A DNA stretch of 19,434 nt from Promethearchaeia archaeon. GTDB lineage: Archaea; Asgardarchaeota; Lokiarchaeia; Sigyniarchaeales; SOKP01. Position 1 is the stretch's first letter, and the number at the start of each line of letters is the position of its first letter. The notes below the pieces were generated by a model. It had not been told where the DNA came from, made no database searches, and saw only the letters and a list, made by a program, of their open reading frames with translations. A program made the position numbers and the translations under genes. The stretch is from positions 1-19,434 of the forward strand of contig JAWOFX010000145.1 in NCBI GenBank assembly GCA_046497275.1, read 5' to 3'. Shown here piece after piece: positions 3,031 through 16,043 of the stretch.

Positions 3031-3435
3031 TTATTTTGTTTCAATATTATTATGGATAAAATCTACTATATCTTGAGTCATAGTTCCGGGACCAAATACT
3101 CCCGCAACCCCGATATCTTTAAGCTTCTTGAAATCTTTAGCAGGAATAACACCGCCTACTAGTATCATAAAATCGCCTTTTAACCTTTTTTCTTCTAATT
3201 TGTCTATCAGTTGCTTGGTATATGCAAGATGAGCTCCAGAATGAATACTTAATCCAATAATATCTACATCCTCATGAACTGCAGATTCCACAATTTGATT
3301 GATGTTTTGAAATCCTCCAAAAATTAATTCCATGCCTGCATCTCTAAGAGCTCTCGATACAACAATACCACCTCGCCAATGACCATCTATCCCTGGCTTA
3401 CTCATAAGCACTCTAATTTTTTTAGTTTGCTGCAT
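3031..3435 (-). CDS. Cobalamin-binding small subunit of an acyl-CoA mutase (MCM C-terminal domain-like)
   Basis: KPGIDGHWRG (DxHxxG base-off/His-on motif), IGLSIHSGAH, VGGVIP, FGPGT; 15 nt downstream of the large subunit. Confidence 0.93.
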   Translation of the reverse strand: MQQTKKIRVLMSKPGIDGHWRGGIVVSRALRDAGMELIFGGFQNINQIVESAVHEDVDIIGLSIHSGAHLAYTKQLIDKLEEKRLKGDFMILVGGVIPAKDFKKLKDIGVAGVFGPGTMTQDIVDFIHNNIETK

Positions 3436-3450: not shown

Positions 3451-5124
3451 TTAAATGGCGAGAGGGGGATCCCAAATACCCCATATCTCTCTATAAATAT
3501 CACAGATCTCTCCCACAGTAGCTCCCTCTTTGGTGGCTTTCATTACAACAGGCATCACATTTTCCTCTCGTTCGCAAACTTTTCGTAATTCATCGAGAAT
3601 TTCTTCTAGTTTATCATTATCTCGTCTCTTTTTTAATTTCTTAATACGCTCTATTTCAATTTTCATAGCTTCTTCATTTGTTCTAAACACATCCGTGACC
3701 TCATCATACGGAACTGGATATTTATTTACACCTAAGGTTATTTCTTCTCCAGTCTCCATCTTTTTCTGTCTTTTATGAAACGCATCTCTCATTTCTTTAT
3801 ATAACCAGCCTGTTGATAAAGCTTTATCTATTGATCCTACTTTCTCAATTTTATCTATATAATTCCATACTCGCTCTTCAATTTCATCGGTTAACCACTC
3901 AACATAATAGGATCCCGCCATTGGATCAACAGTGTTAGGAATTCTAGTCTCATCGGAAATTATTTGCTGAGTTCTAAGGGCAATTAAGGCGGCTTCTTTA
4001 GAGGGCAAACATATAGCTTCATCAAAAGAATTAGTGTGGAGTGATTGACATCCACCTATCGTTGCTTCTAGTGCTTGAATGGCTGTTCTAATAATATTAA
4101 CTTTCGGTAATTGAGCAGTTAAGGAACTTCCCGCTGTTTGGACATGAAATCTAAACTGCATGGATTTTTGATCTTCTACATCATATCGATCTCGCATTAA
4201 TTTTGCCCAAATTCTACGAGCGGCTCTATATTTTGCGATCTCTTCAAAAAAGTCTTTATGAGCAGAGAGGTGGAAGGCTAATCTATTCACAAAGTCGTCC
4301 ACCTTCCATCCTCGGTCGGCTATATTATCGATATGAGAACATGCACTAGCAAAGACAAAACCTAATTCTTGTACTGCGTCTATACCACCTTCTCGATAAT
4401 TATATCCAGTAAAATTAATTGGATGCCATTTTGGTACATTGCCCATCGGCACAGTCCATTCAATAAAATCACAAGCCAAATCAAGTAAATGTTTCGGGGG
4501 AACGTTCTTATAGGGAATATAACCGACTGTCATGGTCAAAATATCATTTTGTGTAGTTCCCATAAGTTGAGTTACATCATAGCCTCTCTTTTTTGCCATA
4601 TTATAATACATAGCAGAAACTGGAGCAGCGGTAAAAGGTTCAACAACCAATGCCACACTTATTTTATCAATTGGGACGTCTTCAGTTAACGCGAATAAAC
4701 TATCAATACAATAGAGAGGAACTCCAGATGTTCCTACTTCTGGTGCTCCATCTGAATTTGAAGGATCGATTCCATTAAAGGTTAATGCATCAACTGCCGC
4801 GCTAAATCCTGTTTCTCCATGCTCATATAAGAATTTCCACCGCTCATTCGTTTCTTCAGGAGTTCCATGTCCACTAAACAAACGCATAGTCCAAATTCTT
4901 CCCCGATACATAGTCGGATATGGTCCGCGCGTATATGGGGGTTGTCCTGGAAATCCGATATCTTCAATATAATTCGTTTTTACATCTAAGGGAGTATATA
5001 ATCGTTTAACTGGGATTCCCGAATCTGTTTCGAATTTTACATCACGCTCTTTTACATCCTTGAATTTTTTTTCCCATTTCTCTTTTTCTCTTCTGATCTT
5101 TTCTAAATATTCATCATCATACAT
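3451..5124 (-). CDS. AdoCbl-dependent acyl-CoA mutase large (substrate-binding) subunit, MCM/ICM family, atypical active site
   Basis: GFPGQPPYTRGPYPTMY, WTMRLFSG, GTTQNDIL, FFEEIAKYRAARRIW, FHVQTAGSSLTAQ, QSLHTNSFDEA, VDPMAGSYYVEWLT. No mcm symbol given because specificity residues differ from MCM. Confidence 0.93.
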   Translation of the reverse strand: MYDDEYLEKIRREKEKWEKKFKDVKERDVKFETDSGIPVKRLYTPLDVKTNYIEDIGFPGQPPYTRGPYPTMYRGRIWTMRLFSGHGTPEETNERWKFLYEHGETGFSAAVDALTFNGIDPSNSDGAPEVGTSGVPLYCIDSLFALTEDVPIDKISVALVVEPFTAAPVSAMYYNMAKKRGYDVTQLMGTTQNDILTMTVGYIPYKNVPPKHLLDLACDFIEWTVPMGNVPKWHPINFTGYNYREGGIDAVQELGFVFASACSHIDNIADRGWKVDDFVNRLAFHLSAHKDFFEEIAKYRAARRIWAKLMRDRYDVEDQKSMQFRFHVQTAGSSLTAQLPKVNIIRTAIQALEATIGGCQSLHTNSFDEAICLPSKEAALIALRTQQIISDETRIPNTVDPMAGSYYVEWLTDEIEERVWNYIDKIEKVGSIDKALSTGWLYKEMRDAFHKRQKKMETGEEITLGVNKYPVPYDEVTDVFRTNEEAMKIEIERIKKLKKRRDNDKLEEILDELRKVCEREENVMPVVMKATKEGATVGEICDIYREIWGIWDPPLAI

Positions 5125-5263: not shown

Positions 5264-6199
5264 TTAAAAAGAAAAGCGATTAATTTTTCTTAATGTTTCT
5301 AAGTCAAACTTACTTGCTGCATATTCAGCTATAGGGACGATACACCCACAGTTCTCACATAATTTTTCTGAATTTCCCATTACGCAAAATTTCCGTTGAC
5401 CATTAGGATAATAACTTTTAACACCACCCATTTTAAATATACAATTAGGGATGAATTCTTTTGTAATGTATAATTCAAGCATTTTCTTCGAGAATATAAT
5501 AAAATCTCCATATTCACTTAAAACTTTTAAAATACTTTTGGTTACTGACTTAAGCATCTCTCCGCTTAATAATAATGGATCACCAGAATAACCGGTATAA
5601 AATAAGAAAAAAATACCTGAAACACCAATATCATAGGCAATTTTTACTACTTTCTCAATCTCCTTATAATTCATAGAACTTATGGTATGAGAAATTGTTA
5701 CTCTTTTATCATCCTCAATATTTTTGATAATTCTTTGAAATATTTTTGCCCCTCGTATTGAATTATGCATTTCTTCTCCACCATCTAAACTTACCCAATA
5801 AACTGGTTGTTTAAGACCCTTAAAATTTGGTAATTTTATTAGGCCATTAGATGCAACTTGGATTGTAGGAAATATTTTAAGAGCATGCTCGATTAAATTC
5901 ATTCTAAGAGTGGGTTCACCACCTGTTAGAGCCGCACTTACAATTCCTAAATTTCTATGATGATTAAATACTTTTAGCCATTGTTGATCCGTTAAATCTT
6001 GTATGGATCTAGAGGAATTTTTACCTAATTCACTTTTTGATGCATTAAAATAGCAATGTTTACAATTTAAATTACACTCCCAGGTTAAATCATAATTTAC
6101 GGCCATAGGTATTTTTCTAGTTTTGTTTTTTAAGAAGTTAAAACCCGCTTTAATGCCAGTTTTAATATTTTCTGGAGTGATTAAACCATTTATTACCAT
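5264..6199 (-). CDS. Radical SAM protein with C-terminal Cys cluster (SPASM/twitch-like)
   Basis: CNLNCKHC (CxxxCxxC), LTGGEP, VSLDG; C-terminal C..C..CENCGC. Confidence 0.88.
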   Translation of the reverse strand: MVINGLITPENIKTGIKAGFNFLKNKTRKIPMAVNYDLTWECNLNCKHCYFNASKSELGKNSSRSIQDLTDQQWLKVFNHHRNLGIVSAALTGGEPTLRMNLIEHALKIFPTIQVASNGLIKLPNFKGLKQPVYWVSLDGGEEMHNSIRGAKIFQRIIKNIEDDKRVTISHTISSMNYKEIEKVVKIAYDIGVSGIFFLFYTGYSGDPLLLSGEMLKSVTKSILKVLSEYGDFIIFSKKMLELYITKEFIPNCIFKMGGVKSYYPNGQRKFCVMGNSEKLCENCGCIVPIAEYAASKFDLETLRKINRFSF

Positions 6200-6316
6200 T
6201 GGATATTAATAAAATAAATTTAATATATTTAGAGTTTTTAAAATTATATTTTTTTATCCCTTAATAAAATATATCTTTTTTTAACCCATATTCTAAAAAT
6301 AGATATTTATTTTTCT

Positions 6317-7120
6317 TTACTTCGAGATAATGAAATTAAAATATTCTCCTTGCATTCGCCACGCATGAAAAAAACTATCGAATGTCCTTAATTCCCAATT
6401 TTTAATTATTGATTTAATCTCATTCATAAGATCTTTTAATAATTTAACACTGCAAGGAGATTTGCAATGTGAAGGAAATAGAATTATATCTTCGTATTTT
6501 TCTGAAATATTGATTAAATCAGAGAGCGTTTTTAATACGAGAGGGAATTCGTTTCGAGGAGGTAAAAAAATATCTCCATAGTAGGCTACATCTCCCGTGA
6601 ATAGTATATTATTTGTCTTTAGACAAATGGAACCAGGAGAATGCCCAGGAGCATGTATGATTTCTACATTCAGATCTCCTAAATCAAATATATCCTTATC
6701 ATGAAGATTAAGAATTTTATCAGCAGGAGGGACGAGAAAATTGTACTTTTCATACTTTTTTACACTTTTTCGGGGTGAATTTCGTAAAAAGGTGAGATTA
6801 TAATTGTTTTTAATAATATTTGCTTCATTTTTATGAATATAAACCTCCTCAAATTCATGATTCCCTAAAATATGGTCCCAATGAGCATGCGAGTTTATTA
6901 CAATTAATTCTCTTCCTTCTATTATATCTTTTACAATAGGCTTTAAAGGATAAAGACCACATCCCGTATCAAGCAATATTGCTCTTTTAGATCCTAGAAC
7001 AATATAAAGATTAAGAGGATCATTTCTATAGATGGGATGGATTTCTGAGATATTTTCCTGAATAGAAAAGACTTTATTATTTAATTTAGTTATTTTAAAA
7101 TGGTTATCTTTTTGCTTCAT
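6317..7120 (-). CDS. Metallo-beta-lactamase-fold hydrolase
   Basis: LLDTG, HAHWDH (HxHxDH), PGHSPGS, LFTGD and a late PSH motif. Confidence 0.9.
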   Translation of the reverse strand: MKQKDNHFKITKLNNKVFSIQENISEIHPIYRNDPLNLYIVLGSKRAILLDTGCGLYPLKPIVKDIIEGRELIVINSHAHWDHILGNHEFEEVYIHKNEANIIKNNYNLTFLRNSPRKSVKKYEKYNFLVPPADKILNLHDKDIFDLGDLNVEIIHAPGHSPGSICLKTNNILFTGDVAYYGDIFLPPRNEFPLVLKTLSDLINISEKYEDIILFPSHCKSPCSVKLLKDLMNEIKSIIKNWELRTFDSFFHAWRMQGEYFNFIISK

Positions 7121-8638: not shown

Positions 8639-9793
8639 ATGAATTTTTCGCTCACTAAGAGACAAAAAATGATTCGAAAGATAACGAGAGAATTTTCAGA
8701 GGAATATATTTCTCCAGTAGTAGAGGAAAGCGATCAAAACTCCCAATTAGACCCTAAAGTATTCGAAATGATGAAGAAAATGAAATATTTCGGTACTTGT
8801 ATTCCAAAGGAGTACGGTGGAGCAGGTCTACAAGACGACACAATTAGTTTTTGTATTGCTACAGAAGAGATCGGACGTATAGATGCCTCATGGAGCATTA
8901 CGACTGGAGTTCATTGTTCAGTTTGTGCATACCCCATTTATATTTTTGGAACGGATGATCAGAAAGATCGTTTTTTAATAGATCTTGCAACGGGGGAAAA
9001 ATTAGGAGCATTTGCATTAACAGAAGCAAACGCTGGCTCTGATGCTGGAGGAGTACAACTGACGGCTGTCAAGGATGGAGATGAATATATTCTTAATGGA
9101 AGTAAAATTTTTGCTACGAATGGAGGTATTGCTGAAACTCTATTAGTTGTGACGACTACAGGACAAAAAGGAAGAAGAAAGGAATTGACAATATTTATAG
9201 TTGATACAGACACACCAGGATATTCTGTGGGGGTCAGAGAAGACAAATTGGGAGTCCGTGCTTCAAATACTTCTGAATTGGTATTTCAAGATGTAAGAGT
9301 GCCTGAGGAAAATATACTAGGAAAAGTTGGACAAGGTTTTAGATTGAGTATGCAAATTTTAGATTATGGGAGGATTTTAATGGCAGCTCAATGTGTTGGT
9401 CTTGGACAAGCTTGCCTTGAAGCATCAATAAAATATGCAAATGAACGGGTACAATTTGGTCAAAAAATCGGACGTTTTCAAGGAATTCAATGGAAAATAG
9501 CGGATATGGCCACCGCAGTAGAGTCATCACGCCTATTAACTTATAAGGCAGCATATAAATGTGATATTGGAGAGGATTATGGACATGCTGGAGCAATGGC
9601 TAAATTAGTAGCTTCTGAATCAGCAATGCAAGCTGCTCATGATGCTGTACAAATCCATGGTGGATATGGATTAATGAAAGCTTATGATGTAGAGAGATAT
9701 TTCAGAGATGCTAAAATGGCTGAAATATATGAAGGAACTTCTGAAATTCAGCGTTATGTAATTGCTAATCATTTATTAAGAAAAGGAGCATGA
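8639..9793 (+). CDS. Acyl-CoA dehydrogenase (short-chain/Bcd-like)
   Basis: GAFALTEANAGSDAG, NGSKIFATNG, KLGVRASNT, RVQFGQKIG, AVQIHGGYG, IYEGTSEIQR with the catalytic Glu in the SCAD/MCAD position. Confidence 0.95.
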   Translation: MNFSLTKRQKMIRKITREFSEEYISPVVEESDQNSQLDPKVFEMMKKMKYFGTCIPKEYGGAGLQDDTISFCIATEEIGRIDASWSITTGVHCSVCAYPIYIFGTDDQKDRFLIDLATGEKLGAFALTEANAGSDAGGVQLTAVKDGDEYILNGSKIFATNGGIAETLLVVTTTGQKGRRKELTIFIVDTDTPGYSVGVREDKLGVRASNTSELVFQDVRVPEENILGKVGQGFRLSMQILDYGRILMAAQCVGLGQACLEASIKYANERVQFGQKIGRFQGIQWKIADMATAVESSRLLTYKAAYKCDIGEDYGHAGAMAKLVASESAMQAAHDAVQIHGGYGLMKAYDVERYFRDAKMAEIYEGTSEIQRYVIANHLLRKGA

Positions 9794-9804: not shown

Positions 9805-10608
9805 ATGAAAATATTTGTATGCATTAAGCAAGTACCGGGTGTTTCTGAAGTAAAGATTGATCCAGAAACAAACACACTAGTAAGAGAAGGTATCCCAAGC
9901 ATCATCAACCCTATGGATAAAAATGGGATTGAATTGGCATTAGAATTAAAGGAGAAATATAAGGCTGAAACAATTGGCATCAGTATGGGACCTCCTCAAG
10001 CAGAAGAGGCTCTTCGAGAGGCATTAGCTATGGGTTTAGATGAAGCATATTTACTTACAGACAGAGCGTTTGCGGGCGCGGATACTTTGGCGACATCTCA
10101 TACTCTATCAATGGGTATCAAAAAATTGATAAAGAATTATGGGGAGAGAGATAATTATTTAGTGATTTGTGGAACTCAAGCCATTGATGGAGATACTGCA
10201 CAAGTAGGACCAGAATTGGCAGAAGAATTAGGTATACCTCAAATTACTTATGTACAAAAATTTGAGATTAAAAATGATAAAGTGATTGTTGAACGCGCAT
10301 TCCGAGGGGAAGAAGTTGTTGTAATTGAAACTAAATTACCTGTTCTTGTTTCTGTCCTTAGAGATCTCAACGAACCAAGATATCCCAATTTAGATGGAAT
10401 AGTTGATTCTTATGAAAAAGAAGTGAAATATTTAAATCATGAAGATATCGAAGCAATAAAGAAAAATATTGGTCTGGTAGGTTCTCAGACAGAAGTTTGG
10501 AGGATATTTGTTCCCAAAAGAAAAGGAGAACATATTATATTGGAAGGCTCAATAGAAGAGCGAGTAAGTGAATTATGTGAAAGATTAAGAGAGGATAAGC
10601 TAATCTAA
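9805..10608 (+). CDS. etfB: Electron transfer flavoprotein beta subunit
   Basis: MKIFVCIKQVP, INPMD, SMGPPQA, DRAFAGADTLATS, QAIDGDTAQVGP, EPRYP. Confidence 0.96.
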   Translation: MKIFVCIKQVPGVSEVKIDPETNTLVREGIPSIINPMDKNGIELALELKEKYKAETIGISMGPPQAEEALREALAMGLDEAYLLTDRAFAGADTLATSHTLSMGIKKLIKNYGERDNYLVICGTQAIDGDTAQVGPELAEELGIPQITYVQKFEIKNDKVIVERAFRGEEVVVIETKLPVLVSVLRDLNEPRYPNLDGIVDSYEKEVKYLNHEDIEAIKKNIGLVGSQTEVWRIFVPKRKGEHIILEGSIEERVSELCERLREDKLI

Positions 10609-10620
10609 GGAGGTTAAAAA

Positions 10621-11820
10621 ATGAGTATAATAATAGACAATGAATTGTGCACAGGCTGTGGAGCATGTGTTGATAATTGCCCATTTGGAGGAATGGAAAT
10701 AAAAGATAATGTAGCGTGCATAACTGGTGAATGTACATTATGTGGAGCTTGTGTTGATGTTTGTCCCGTTGAGGCGATCACAATTGAAAAGGAAGAGTTT
10801 AAAATCCCAAAAATGGATCTTTCTAAATTCAAAGGGATAATGGTAATTGGCGAACAATTTCGAAATGAAATTCAAAGTGTAGTTTATCAACTTTTGGGAA
10901 AAGGAAGGGATTTAGCAGATAAATTAGGAGTAGACGTATCGGTTGTGCTTTTGGGTTCTGATCTAGATGATAAACTAAAAGAGTTAGGAGAGTATGGGGC
11001 AGATGAAGTTATTTATGTTAAATCTCCCATTTTAAAAGATTATTATTCTGATTTATATGTTAATACTTTAACTGAAATAATCCAAGAGCGAAAGCCAGAA
11101 ATTGTTCTAATAGGAGCAACTCCAACCGGTAGGGATTTTGCTCCTCGCCTCTCAAAACGATTATATGCAGGATGTACAGCTGACTGCACGGGATTAGATA
11201 TTGAAGAAGATACGGGAAATTTGTTACAAACTAGACCGACGTTTGGAGGGAATATTATGGCAACGATTAGAACCCCAACGAGTAGACCTCAAATGAGCAC
11301 CGTTCGACCAGGTATTTTTGAACCTATTGAAAAAATAGATAAAAAACCTAAAATAACAATTATCGAAAAAAAATTTGATGAAGAGGACTCCGTTACTAAA
11401 ATCCTTAAAATTATTGATAAAGAAAAGATTGCTGTTAATCTTGAAGAGGCAGAAGTAATCGTTTCTGGAGGAAGGGGAGTCGGAAATAAAGAAAATTTCA
11501 AAATAATTAAAGAATTAGCAGAAGCATTAGGAGGAGAAGTTGGAGGATCCAGAGTTACTGTTGAATTAGAATGGATTGAGCAAGACAGACAAGTTGGTCA
11601 AACGGGAAAAACAGTGTCGCCTAAACTATATATCGCATGTGGTATCTCTGGAGCCATCCAGCATTTAGTCGGAATGGAAACATCAGATATTATCGTGGCA
11701 ATTAATAAGGATCCTAATGCTCCAATTTTCGATGTGGCTCATTATGGAATTATTGATGATTTACATAAAGTGGTACCCGCTCTCACAGAAGAAATAAAAA
11801 AAAGAAAATCAAAAAATTAA
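10621..11820 (+). CDS. etfA: Electron transfer flavoprotein alpha subunit with N-terminal 2x[4Fe-4S] ferredoxin domain
   Basis: CTGCGACVDNCP and CTLCGACVDVCP, then TADCT, QTRPTFGGN, IVSGGRG, QVGQTGKTV, GISGAIQH, AINKDPNAPIF; SD AGGAGGT upstream. Confidence 0.96.
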   Translation: MSIIIDNELCTGCGACVDNCPFGGMEIKDNVACITGECTLCGACVDVCPVEAITIEKEEFKIPKMDLSKFKGIMVIGEQFRNEIQSVVYQLLGKGRDLADKLGVDVSVVLLGSDLDDKLKELGEYGADEVIYVKSPILKDYYSDLYVNTLTEIIQERKPEIVLIGATPTGRDFAPRLSKRLYAGCTADCTGLDIEEDTGNLLQTRPTFGGNIMATIRTPTSRPQMSTVRPGIFEPIEKIDKKPKITIIEKKFDEEDSVTKILKIIDKEKIAVNLEEAEVIVSGGRGVGNKENFKIIKELAEALGGEVGGSRVTVELEWIEQDRQVGQTGKTVSPKLYIACGISGAIQHLVGMETSDIIVAINKDPNAPIFDVAHYGIIDDLHKVVPALTEEIKKRKSKN

Positions 11821-11961: not shown

Positions 11962-12753
11962 CTAAACTTTATCTAACCTACCACCATTTATGCCAATTAT
12001 CTCGCCGTTCATAAACCAAGCATCTTCGCTGCATAAGAAAAGGATTACACGCGAAACATATTCTGGCTCTCCAATTCCCATTGGAATTCTTCCTGAATAA
12101 TATTTCCTCCATTTTCCATCTTGTTTTGATAACAATTCTCCGAGAATTGGTGTTTCAATTAATGTTGGCATAATAGCATGCGTCTTCACATTATAGCGTA
12201 TTAATTCTAATCCCGCCGTTTTTATCATACCTAACATTCCAGCTTTCGCTGCCGAATAATTTAATTGCCCAATGTTTCCTTCAGCTGCTTGACTCGATAT
12301 TGTAATAATTCTTCGGTCAGGATAGTCCGCAATCTCTTCTTTGGGGTTTTCCTTACATATATCAATCCATCTTTTTACACATGCTTGCATAGATAAAAAA
12401 AATCCCTTAAGGTGAGTATCTATTACCGCATTCCATCTCTGTTCGGGTAGTTTATGTATCATACCATCCTGTAAAATACCAGCAGAATGAATGAGAAAGT
12501 CATTAGGACCATATGTATCAAAAGTGTTTTGTATTGCTTGATCAACAGCCTCTATATCTCTCACATCTCCTTCAATAAACGTCACTTCTCCGCCAAGCTC
12601 TTTTATCTCATTTTCAACTTTTTTTCCATTCTCAGCATCAAAATCGTATAAAACTACTTTTGCTCCTTCTTTAGCAAAATCCTTAGCTGTCTGTCTTCCT
12701 AGTCCAGAAGCCCCTCCGGTGATAAAAGCCACTTTACCATTAAATCTTTCCAT
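11962..12753 (-). CDS. Short-chain dehydrogenase/reductase, FabG/(3R)-hydroxyacyl-CoA dehydrogenase-like, probably NAD-dependent
   Basis: TGGASGLG, acidic residue after beta2 (LYDFD), ISS, GQLNYSAAK (YxxxK). Confidence 0.9.
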   Translation of the reverse strand: MERFNGKVAFITGGASGLGRQTAKDFAKEGAKVVLYDFDAENGKKVENEIKELGGEVTFIEGDVRDIEAVDQAIQNTFDTYGPNDFLIHSAGILQDGMIHKLPEQRWNAVIDTHLKGFFLSMQACVKRWIDICKENPKEEIADYPDRRIITISSQAAEGNIGQLNYSAAKAGMLGMIKTAGLELIRYNVKTHAIMPTLIETPILGELLSKQDGKWRKYYSGRIPMGIGEPEYVSRVILFLCSEDAWFMNGEIIGINGGRLDKV

Positions 12754-14432: not shown

Positions 14433-14849
14433 CTATAATTCATCGCCTTCTATCAAATCAAAATTTTCTGCCTTAAGAATTTCTAGAGCTTTCTCCGAAT
14501 CATCAACCTTTACGATTATAAGACTATTATGCTGAGGTGTAGTCGTTAAATAAAGATAATCGATATTTATCTTATTGTTGCCTAAAATATTCGCAACATT
14601 AAATAAGGTTGAAGGTTCATTTCCAAATTTAATAGCTACAACTTCAGTCGAGGAGAATTCATATCCATTCTCCTCTAAATGGTTTATACACTTCTGAGGT
14701 TTATCTACTAAAAGTAGAATCAATCCATAATCTGCAGTTTCTACTACTGATATTGCTCTAACATTAATTCCATTTTCATTTAATTCTTTTAATAAATCCG
14801 CCAACTCTCCAGGTTTATTTGGTAAAAATACACTTAATTCTGTTATCAA
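14433..14849 (-). CDS. Tandem-ACT domain protein (Bt0572-like), paralog 1
   Basis: SVFLPNKPGELA, NVRAISVVETADYG, NIDYLY; TTG start. Confidence 0.9.
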   Translation of the reverse strand: MITELSVFLPNKPGELADLLKELNENGINVRAISVVETADYGLILLLVDKPQKCINHLEENGYEFSSTEVVAIKFGNEPSTLFNVANILGNNKINIDYLYLTTTPQHNSLIIVKVDDSEKALEILKAENFDLIEGDEL

Positions 14850-14991
14850 TTCATAACACTCTCTTTTTCATATTTAATTTGAATTAATTTATTTCTTTTT
14901 GATATTTTAAAAAAGTTATTTATATTAAAAATAATCAAACGTTACTTTTCAAGATAACTCTATTCAAAATAAGATATTTTTAATTTAGTAT

Positions 14992-15411
14992 TCAGAATTT
15001 TTCTCGTTCTTCTAAGAGAAATCCATTATTCTTTAACACATCTATAGCTTTTTCGTTATCATCCACTCTTAGGATTAGCAGAGATTCATCTTTGACCAAA
15101 GTTGAATACATATATTCAATATTTATACCACCCTCTCCCAGAATTTTAGAGATTTTTAAGACACCCTTAGTATGTCCTTCTTCTGATAAAACTTTTACTG
15201 CTATAACTTCTGTAACAGAATAAATATGATCTTTTTCTTCTAATAATTCAATACATTTATTAGGTTTATCAACTAATAATAAGAGTAAGCCATACTCCTC
15301 ATTTTCGGCAACAGTAATCGCTCGAATTTCAATATCATTCTCAACTAATAAAGTTGCAAATCGAGCTAATTGCCCAGGAACATTCTTTAAATATACTGAA
15401 ATATTTTTCAT
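14992..15411 (-). CDS. Tandem-ACT domain protein (Bt0572-like), paralog 2
   Basis: SVYLKNVPGQLA, IRAITVAENEEYG, INIEYMYS; GGAG upstream. Confidence 0.9.
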   Translation of the reverse strand: MKNISVYLKNVPGQLARFATLLVENDIEIRAITVAENEEYGLLLLLVDKPNKCIELLEEKDHIYSVTEVIAVKVLSEEGHTKGVLKISKILGEGGINIEYMYSTLVKDESLLILRVDDNEKAIDVLKNNGFLLEEREKF

Positions 15412-15629
15412 TCGTGTTGTAGACTCCTTCTAATAATATTTTGATATAAAATCTAAGTTATAAAAATTGAAGAGCTCTTTAAAACTATTGCATTATTTTA
15501 TTTTATTTAATAGTGAATTTTTTCTAGCTTTTTAATAGCTTTGCATTTCGAATTGATTATATTTTAAATAATACCATTTCTATCAGTTAGAAAGATTTTT
15601 TTCATGAGTTTAGATAAAATTAAAATCAA

Positions 15630-16043
15630 TTAAAAATCTTGGTTTTTAACTAATTTAACTCCGTTATCTTCCAAAATTCTCACCGCTTTTTCAATATCAT
15701 CTACTTTTAACACAATTATCGCTTCTTGTCTAATTAAAGTGCTGTATATATATTCTATATTAATATCATTATCTCCTAATATTTCTGCGATTTCATGCAA
15801 TGATCCGGGCTTGTCAGGAATTTGAATTGCTATGACATCGGCGATTGAAACTAAATAATTATTTTTTCTAAGAACTTTTACACATTCCTCAGTTTTATCA
15901 ACTAAAGTTCTTAATATGCCAAAGTCAGCTGTTTCAGCAACAGTTAAAGCTCTCAAATTAACATTGTTATCTTGAATAATTTTTGTAAATTTACTCAATA
16001 CACCTGGAGTATTTTCCAGAAAAACACTGATTTGTTTTAACAT
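15630..16043 (-). CDS. Tandem-ACT domain protein (Bt0572-like), paralog 3
   Basis: MLKQISVFLENTPG, NLRALTVAETADFGILR, IPDKPGSL, INIEYIYS; GGAG upstream. Confidence 0.92.
   Translation of the reverse strand: MLKQISVFLENTPGVLSKFTKIIQDNNVNLRALTVAETADFGILRTLVDKTEECVKVLRKNNYLVSIADVIAIQIPDKPGSLHEIAEILGDNDINIEYIYSTLIRQEAIIVLKVDDIEKAVRILEDNGVKLVKNQDF

Follow-up and report, generated by a model that had tools for sequence, protein, structure and literature searches.

Which reaction is catalyzed by the acyl-CoA mutase encoded on contig JAWOFX010000145.1 of a Promethearchaeia archaeon? The window analyzed here, which is the whole 19.4-kb stretch of this contig (G+C content ~30%), encodes on its minus strand the large subunit of an adenosylcobalamin (AdoCbl)-dependent acyl-CoA mutase, together with a B12-binding small subunit and a MeaB-type G-protein chaperone (Table 1). 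Characterized members of this superfamily differ in the residues at active-site positions 89, 207, and 244, in the numbering of methylmalonyl-CoA mutase (MCM). MCM carries Tyr/Arg/His, isobutyryl-CoA mutase (ICM) Phe/Gln/His, and 2-hydroxyisobutyryl-CoA mutase (HCM) Ile/Gln/His. In MCM, Tyr89 and Arg207 bind the substrate carboxylate, and to our knowledge His244 is invariant in every characterized acyl-CoA mutase. The window protein matches none of these signatures, and its histidine is replaced by asparagine. Our preferred, though tentative, reading is that the large subunit (3451–5124), the small subunit (3031–3435), and MeaB (1803–2777) would together constitute a functional two-subunit AdoCbl mutase of an uncharacterized subfamily, acting on an uncharged short acyl-CoA, likely an alkyl one.

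The large subunit covers 512 of 512 model positions of PF01642 (558 bits) and scores 554 bits against TIGR00641 (cut-off 304), and its catalytic TIM-barrel domain is thus recognized; it falls far under the MCM equivalog cut-off (NF006944, 440 bits versus 876 required). In its AlphaFold2 (AF2) model (pLDDT 90.3) the eight β-strands sit where the sequence alignment puts them, and the model superposes best on HcmA, the large subunit of Aquincola tertiaricarbonis HCM (4R3U; chain 4r3u_B, Z of 52.2, rmsd of 1.7 Å over 546 residues by VIA-align), compared with Z values of ~50 for MCM structures and 42 for the fused ICM, IcmF. HcmA is also the best sequence match among PDB chains searched with phmmer (433 bits, 37% identity), compared with 344 bits for human MCM and 113 bits for MutA. 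An ESM Atlas feature search with the mutase returned only generic "methylmalonyl-CoA mutase" clusters. The window enzyme shares with HcmAB the separate large and small subunits, a MeaB-type chaperone, and identical CoA- and adenosyl-contact residues; with ICM (IcmA/IcmB, or fused IcmF, 4XC6/5CJT) the two-subunit form with MeaB, a phenylalanine at the Tyr89 position, and the lack of a carboxylate-binding arginine; and with MCM (Propionibacterium shermanii MutB, 1REQ; human MMUT, 2XIJ) the fold, the contact residues, and the DxHxxG mode of B12 binding.

The active site is where the window protein departs from all three. Residue equivalences were obtained from phmmer alignments to 1REQ_A (MutB), 2XIJ_A (MMUT), and 4R3U_A (HcmA), from a MAFFT alignment of the protein with 167 family members, including 150 representative clusters, and from a profile–profile comparison (Asgard versus canonical) in HHalign, and the three methods concur on all signature positions. 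Phe83 (codon TTT, 4876–4878) takes the place of Tyr89 and follows Leu82 in place of Gln88; Val111 stands at Phe117; Thr197-Met198 replace the canonically invariant Lys202-Glu203; and Asn242 (AAT, 4399–4401) occupies the position of the catalytic His244. Apart from Leu82, the preliminary description had proposed these equivalences, with the same codon positions, from a manual alignment, and all three alignments bear them out. It had also put a tyrosine near Arg207: Tyr202 (TAT, 4519–4521) is indeed placed there by each method, but 12 of the 121 close homologues and the orthologues at ~70% identity have phenylalanine, so that the position is aromatic rather than strictly tyrosine. We also looked for an alignment register that would restore Arg or Gln at 207 and His at 244, and there is none. 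Near the signature sites there is a single indel, an insertion of one residue following position 205, and residues 197–207 (TMTVGYIPYKN) contain neither arginine nor glutamine, so no register puts either at 207. Around the His244 site the alignment has no gap (GY-N-YRE versus GY-H-MQE), with the conserved Gly-Tyr and Glu on either side, and 52 of 52 canonical clusters carry histidine here.

Set against the known enzymes, the protein has neither the Tyr89–Arg207 clamp nor the His244 of MCM (EC 5.4.99.2). Of the ICM triad (EC 5.4.99.13) it keeps the phenylalanine, whereas Gln207 is replaced by Tyr/Phe and His244 by Asn, and the ICM residues Phe117 and Gln88 by Val and Leu. The determinants of HCM/RCM-type enzymes, Ile/Val90, the Asp117 that binds the substrate hydroxyl, Gln208, and the histidine, correspond to Phe83, Ala110, Tyr/Phe202, and Asn242, and the Lys-Glu pair that follows the QxDIL motif in HCM is Thr-Met. 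The general-acid histidine at 244, which acts on the thioester carbonyl, is absent. The change extends further than the preliminary description had it: the losses it listed stand, but it missed the swaps at Asp148, Thr166, Asn168, and Tyr266 and so understated the remodeling. In a survey of 18 Asgard rows against 52 canonical rows, positions that are 80–100% conserved among the canonical sequences are replaced by other, invariant residues at Asp148, Thr166, Asn168, Lys202, Glu203, His244, Tyr266, and Leu119-Pro120 (Ala113-Leu114 in the Asgard rows), and seven residues that are 90–100% conserved across the 52 canonical clusters are swapped together.

The rest of the catalytic apparatus is retained, as the preliminary description had stated for the CoA-binding and radical-machinery residues. 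In addition to the positions in Table 1, Arg81 (MCM 87), Gln192 (197), Tyr241 (243), and Glu245 (247) are present, and the adenosyl- and CoA-contacting set of MCM (Arg87, Gln197, Tyr243, His328, Gln330, Asn366, and Glu370) is invariant in all 121 homologues. The small subunit and MeaB, which had been described as intact, both score above their family cut-offs (Table 1). The adjacent 134-residue subunit provides the base-off/His-on partner domain, with its DxHxxG motif in the sequence Lys13...Asp17-Gly-His19-Trp-Arg-Gly22 (DGHWRG), and reads SIH (3241–3249, minus strand) where canonical subunits have SxL; the small subunit of the ICM-type paralogue in the same genome has DGHDRG and SILSGAH. These motifs co-vary and are conserved: nearly all of the 19 aligned orthologous small subunits retain DGHWRG and SIHSGAH, with single-residue variants in two; the exceptions read GGHFRG in one case and SMHSGAH in another, and two open reading frame (ORF) calls begin after the DxHxxG region. 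In the small subunit with GGHFRG (L055:8137-8541), the aspartate of the DxHxxG triad is glycine, and the protein is otherwise conserved.

The signature is a stable one. More than 120 database clusters, at 80–98% identity to the window protein, all carry it, with Tyr202 as the one variable site, and 54% of positions are invariant among the 121 homologues. The source names of these close homologues include Lokiarchaeota, Promethearchaeota, Hodarchaeota, Hermodarchaeota, and Thorarchaeota, in agreement with an Asgard origin of the window. In a sample of 301 genomes of the phylum, orthologues (66–100% identity) occur in ~53 of the 68 genomes of the window's family, in five of the six genomes of family f21 (at ~70%), and singly or in small numbers in families f2, f4, and f7; beyond these, identity falls to 49% or less. 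The Asgard matches at 47–49%, considered as possible sister clades, proved to be ordinary MCM-type and ICM-type paralogues. Relative to the orthologue from the same genus, the gene has a nonsynonymous rate (dN) of 0.085 and a synonymous rate (dS) of 2.17, a ratio of ~0.04 with dS saturating, in keeping with strong purifying selection; the ratio for MeaB is 0.10. Across five other genomes the window mutase is 88, 83, 78, 66, and 70% identical to its counterparts, compared with 74, 68, 59, and 63% for the MCM-type enzyme (no value for the fourth genome) and 85, 81, 78, 68, and 65% for the ICM-type enzyme. Its conservation is thus at least that of the MCM-type and about equal to that of the ICM-type paralogue, which argues strongly for a working enzyme. 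That the protein looks functional rather than decayed, as had been claimed, fits the dN/dS ratio, the dedicated B12 subunit, and the gene's own MeaB.

The same genome, which is 98.9% complete, encodes three acyl-CoA mutase large subunits. The paralogue on contig C20 reads RQY, KEYVARGTY, and YHMRE at the three signature segments (Tyr/Arg/His, MCM type), that on contig C109 reads RQF, KEYIAQKSW, and YHIRE (Phe/Gln/His, ICM type) and comes with a small subunit and MeaB of its own, and the window gene reads RLF, TMTVGYIPY, and YNYRE. The window protein is 43–45% identical to these two. Because canonical Tyr/Arg/His and Phe/Gln/His enzymes are encoded alongside it, the window mutase is a third distinct enzyme and not a drifted MCM. 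For these three large subunits (contigs C20, C109, and C181), only two genes each for a B12 small subunit and for MeaB were found in the genome: one pair next to the ICM-type gene, the other in the window. The MCM-type gene on C20 lies between a thiolase gene and a DUF35-like gene, lacks a small subunit of its own, and may borrow one.

Phylogenetic analyses (a FastTree tree of 160 rows and an IQ-TREE tree of 73 rows) place the Asgard orthogroup, itself supported at 100, outside the His244 group. In both trees the Tyr/Arg/His, Phe/Gln/His, and Ile/Gln/His clusters, including those with the HCM-like STDFD motif, all fall together, set apart by a branch supported at 98. The orthogroup joins clusters P0127, P0146, and P0140/P0201/P0213 at support 99, and position 244 in P0127, P0146, P0140, P0201, and P0213 is Asn, Val, Asn, Asp, and Asn, respectively. 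An exhaustive search of representatives found P0127, at 46% identity, to be the closest other cluster at the 50%-identity level. About half of the 150 nearest such clusters lack His244 and have Asn, Asp, Gln, Val, or Cys instead, and most of these also lack Lys202-Glu203. Judged from the trees, the window mutase is one branch of a large uncharacterized non-His244 radiation, and the subfamily is therefore not unique. The metagenomic "MCM-like" clusters P0127, P0140, and P0213 resemble the orthogroup in their Asn or Asp at 244, the hydrophobic residues in place of Lys202-Glu203, and an adjacent B12 subunit; they differ in being at most 46% identical, in having other residues at 89 and 207, and in not being Asgard-specific, and none has a known function. 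The neighborhoods of P0140, P0146, and P0213 yielded no clue to the substrate: besides the B12 subunit next to the mutase, they contain only an ABC ATPase and, in one cluster, a translationally coupled CoA ligase of generic fatty-acyl/feruloyl type. Some members of the non-His244 radiation, in the P0127–P0276 range, lack even Arg87.

The earlier proposal of a new subfamily that is not MCM, ICM, or HCM is upheld by this conserved clade and its differing defining residues. The phylogeny with tabulated residues that had been suggested covers MCM-, ICM-, and HCM-type clusters, from all of which the orthogroup stands apart. The characterized ethylmalonyl-CoA and pivalyl-CoA mutases keep the His244 that the window protein lacks. 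Searches of the literature on Asgard acyl-CoA mutases and mutase subfamilies turned up no account of a mutase with Asn244.

What, then, would the enzyme act on? The "methylmalonyl-CoA mutase" label is, on these residues, probably wrong. With Tyr89 and Arg207 replaced by phenylalanine and by tyrosine or phenylalanine, next to Leu82 and Val111, a free carboxylate is unlikely, and a substrate without one, as the preliminary description proposed, is a reasonable inference; a hydrophobic or branched one, as also proposed there, would be a more speculative step. The domain scan of the window ORFs found no VOC/epimerase domain, in line with the earlier remark that the window has no methylmalonyl-CoA epimerase gene, and elsewhere in the genome only sub-threshold TIGR03081 matches were found, all on other contigs, which is no guide to the role of this gene. 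In the reaction we favor, the enzyme would take a short acyl-CoA and move its CoA-thioester group by the usual radical 1,2-shift, most likely interconverting branched and linear C4–C6 alkyl acyl-CoAs. Aromatic and aliphatic residues take the place of the Arg207/Tyr89 clamp, and Asn242 would only hydrogen bond with the thioester carbonyl and not protonate it. The nearby acyl-CoA dehydrogenase (ACAD) of Bcd/Acr type, with its electron-transfer flavoprotein (EtfBA), would then process the straight-chain partner. A short uncharged acyl-CoA linked to this dehydrogenase is the simplest guess.

The gene context, surveyed at 20 orthologous loci, is only suggestive as a guide to the substrate. The small subunit adjoins the mutase in 19 loci and MeaB lies downstream in 15. 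A Bcd-type ACAD–EtfB–ferredoxin–EtfA block lies 4–8 kb from the mutase in six. The window ACAD is closest to electron-bifurcating butyryl-CoA dehydrogenases (5ol2_C, 2.7e-114), and in NCBIfam the ACAD and EtfA match best, though under cut-off, to AcrC and AcrA, subunits of acryloyl-CoA reductase. Genes for short-chain dehydrogenases/reductases (SDRs) are near the mutase in five loci: in family f21 the order mutL-mutS-SDR-SDR is direct, with thiolase/DUF35 pairs upstream, and SDR genes are also nearby in g1 and g3.

Four observations weigh against the alkyl reading. ACAD-ETF genes also flank ordinary MCM-type genes in other Asgard genomes. The neighbors of the mutase vary between genera, and the metallo-β-lactamase (MBL) gene does not co-vary with it, which makes the context weak. 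The conserved asparagine at His244, a residue whose removal in MCM lowers kcat 100- to 1,000-fold, together with the loss of Lys202-Glu203, Asp148, Asn168, and Tyr266, may exceed a change of specificity. Finally, the new polar residues Glu162, His264, and Asn242 could bind a polar substituent rather than a purely alkyl chain. The coordinated loss of His244 and the Lys-Glu pair, the other invariant replacements, and the SIH motif of the B12 subunit leave room for altered chemistry or for a polar substituent.

The best-surviving alternative, though an unlikely one, takes up the last of these points: the enzyme would be a mutase for hydroxy-substituted or other polar uncharged acyl-CoAs, using HCM-like chemistry through different binding residues. 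It would convert 2-hydroxyacyl- to 3-hydroxyacyl-CoA, for example 2-hydroxyisobutyryl- to 3-hydroxybutyryl-CoA or lactyl- to 3-hydroxypropionyl-CoA, and the 3-hydroxyacyl-CoA would either pass to the neighboring SDR or be dehydrated first and then reduced, as an enoyl-CoA, by the ACAD-Etf. The rank of HcmA as best sequence and structure match points this way, as do the clade-specific Asn242, Glu162, and His264 at barrel-top positions. The FabG-like SDRs directly downstream in f21 and nearby in g1 and g3, the f21 thiolase/DUF35 pairs, and the AcrC/AcrA matches would fit as well. However, the HCM determinants Ile90, Asp117, and Gln208 are absent, the HCM/RCM-like STDFD clusters lie within the His244 clade and apart from the window protein, and the same-genome MCM- and ICM-type paralogues (43–45%) are closer to it than HcmA (37%). 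SDR paralogues are numerous, and those of f1 and f21 are not orthologous (33–35% identity). The genome also has at least six strong HGD-D-family (2-hydroxyacyl-CoA dehydratase-type) genes, so a bypass through a hydroxyacyl-CoA mutase would not be needed.

Less probable still is AdoCbl radical chemistry on a CoA ester of a reaction class other than the thioester 1,2-shift, with another migrating group or an elimination. Such chemistry would explain why His244 and Lys202-Glu203 are dispensable across the non-His244 radiation, which makes up about half of the nearest clusters. The joint replacement of the seven canonical residues, the Asn, Asp, or Val at 244 in the 99-supported sister group, and the conserved change from SxL to SIH in the B12 subunit, with a tryptophan after the histidine ligand, are in keeping with it. 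Against this, every adenosyl- and CoA-contact residue known from MCM is kept, the model superposes closely on HcmA, and neither an extra cofactor domain (e.g., for pyridoxal phosphate) nor a conserved partner gene is found over the 20 loci. H244 mutants of MCM remain slow mutases, so the asparagine may be just a weaker hydrogen-bond donor.

We consider it improbable that the protein is an isozyme of known activity, an ICM or MCM in spite of its odd residues. Its Phe83 is ICM-like, two small subunits and two MeaB for three large subunits would allow the modules to overlap in function, and the ACAD-ETF context resembles butyrate metabolism; yet the same genomes also encode canonical enzymes of MCM and ICM type, each conserved in its own right, the carboxylate clamp of the one and the Gln207 and His244 of the other are gone, and the window protein lies outside the His244 clade. 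A decayed or noncatalytic subunit like the inactive MutA β chain of P. shermanii MCM, which the loss of the catalytic histidine and substrate clamp might suggest, is very unlikely given the dN/dS of ~0.04, the 54% of invariant positions, the retained radical machinery, the gene's own B12 subunit and MeaB, an operon without a second large subunit, and a MutA match far weaker than those of catalytic chains.

These considerations bear on how Asgard metabolism is read. Metabolic reconstructions count every PF01642 gene as an MCM and derive propionate/succinate metabolism or the rearrangement of alkane adducts from it (e.g., PMC8163825, which assigns such genes to alkane-adduct rearrangement). Such maps are probably wrong at this step, since the orthogroup, found in the majority of genomes of the window's family and also in several other Asgard families, is unable to bind methylmalonyl-CoA as the known enzymes do. 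Both accessible and highly conserved, it can stand for a very large B12 mutase branch without the supposedly universal catalytic histidine, and identification of its substrate would widen the known B12 carbon-skeleton chemistry and could supply catalysts for engineered pathways. A long shot, in our estimate, is that the Asgard clade, perhaps along with all of the non-His244 radiation, carries out a B12-radical reaction on CoA esters not known in nature, be it a natural lactyl-CoA/3-hydroxypropionyl-CoA or other 2-hydroxyacyl-CoA mutase or one with a non-thioester migrating group; the lactyl-CoA mutase reaction has been called "new-to-nature" (PMC11599936, 2024).

Table 1. Features of the window and signature sites of the mutase large subunit
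Feature	Positions	Strand	Remarks
MFS/GPH transporter	214–1641	−	
MeaB-type G-protein chaperone, 324 aa	1803–2777	−	P-loop GSPGVGKST; TIGR00750, 286 bits (cut-off 241)
B12-binding small subunit, 134 aa	3031–3435	−	TIGR00640, 133 bits (cut-off 57); PF02310
Acyl-CoA mutase large (substrate-binding, TIM-barrel) subunit, 557 aa	3451–5124	−	PF01642, TIGR00641, AF2 model
His327, Gln329, Gln360, Asn365, Glu369	4018–4146	−	MCM 328, 330, 361, 366, 370; radical/CoA machinery, kept
Ser142, Val160, Glu162, His264	4333–4701	−	Canonical invariants Asp148, Thr166, Asn168, Tyr266; clade-specific swaps, codons verified
Asn242 in GYNYREG (YNYRE)	4399–4401	−	Catalytic His244; invariant in 121 homologues
QNDILTMTVGYIPY	4519–4536	−	Thr197-Met198 at invariant Lys202-Glu203; Tyr202 at Arg207/Gln207
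Val111 in SAAVD	4792–4794	−	MCM Phe117
Leu82-Phe83 in WTMRLFSG	4876–4881	−	MCM Gln88-Tyr89; invariant in 121 homologues
Radical SAM protein, 311 aa	5264–6199	−	Upstream of mutase, co-directional
MBL-fold hydrolase	6317–7120	−	Upstream of mutase, co-directional
Zinc-ribbon protein		+	Divergent from mutase block
Short-chain ACAD, Bcd/AcrC-like	8639–9793	+	Pfam; candidate pathway partner
EtfB	9805–10608	+	Pfam; candidate pathway partner
EtfA with N-terminal ferredoxin domain	10621–11820	+	Pfam; candidate pathway partner
FabG-like SDR	11962–12753	−	Possible hydroxyacyl/oxoacyl-CoA oxidoreductase; convergent with ACAD-Etf block

Two further neighbors were considered as partners of the mutase and set aside. 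The MBL gene is present in seven of the 20 loci, and a functional link was rejected, as there are genomes that have its orthologue but not the mutase and others that have the mutase but not the orthologue. The co-directional order MBL hydrolase, radical SAM, mutL, mutS, MeaB is kept within the same genus (window 5264–7120, minus strand; L054:4-1655). A GctA/GctB-like pair stands beside MeaB in six to eight loci of family f1 (L055:5156-6944, L054:5138-6022, L047:2584-5200, and five others), with 1POI A/B as its best PDB match. Because the position of the catalytic Glu54 is replaced, with Tyr-His-Tyr aligned there in the GctB-like subunit, the pair may, like AibAB or IpdAB, decarboxylate or hydrolyze a CoA ester instead of acting as a transferase. 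As a required partner it was rejected: the window's own genome has only a 35% relative, and the GctB-like protein is without the catalytic glutamate.

Several minor observations concern the surroundings of the locus. In family f21 (L039 = G038:C1, and L040), an MtrH-family methyltransferase gene lies ~5 kb from the mutase, and an IS605 OrfB/Cas12f-like TnpB gene lies 3 kb upstream. On a single 3.58-Mb contig of this family, the ICM-type paralogue is ~21 kb and the MCM-type paralogue ~120 kb from the mutase. In the window, the radical SAM protein has a weak PTO1314-family match and a C-terminal CxxCxC motif, and the N-terminal domain of EtfA is a 2x[4Fe-4S] ferredoxin, a feature shared with certain Etf complexes that bifurcate or confurcate electrons. 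Three tandem ACT-ACT (PF19571) paralogues of 137–139 residues are encoded at 14433–16043 on the minus strand, where the related loci L055 and L058 have a single copy in the matching synteny block.

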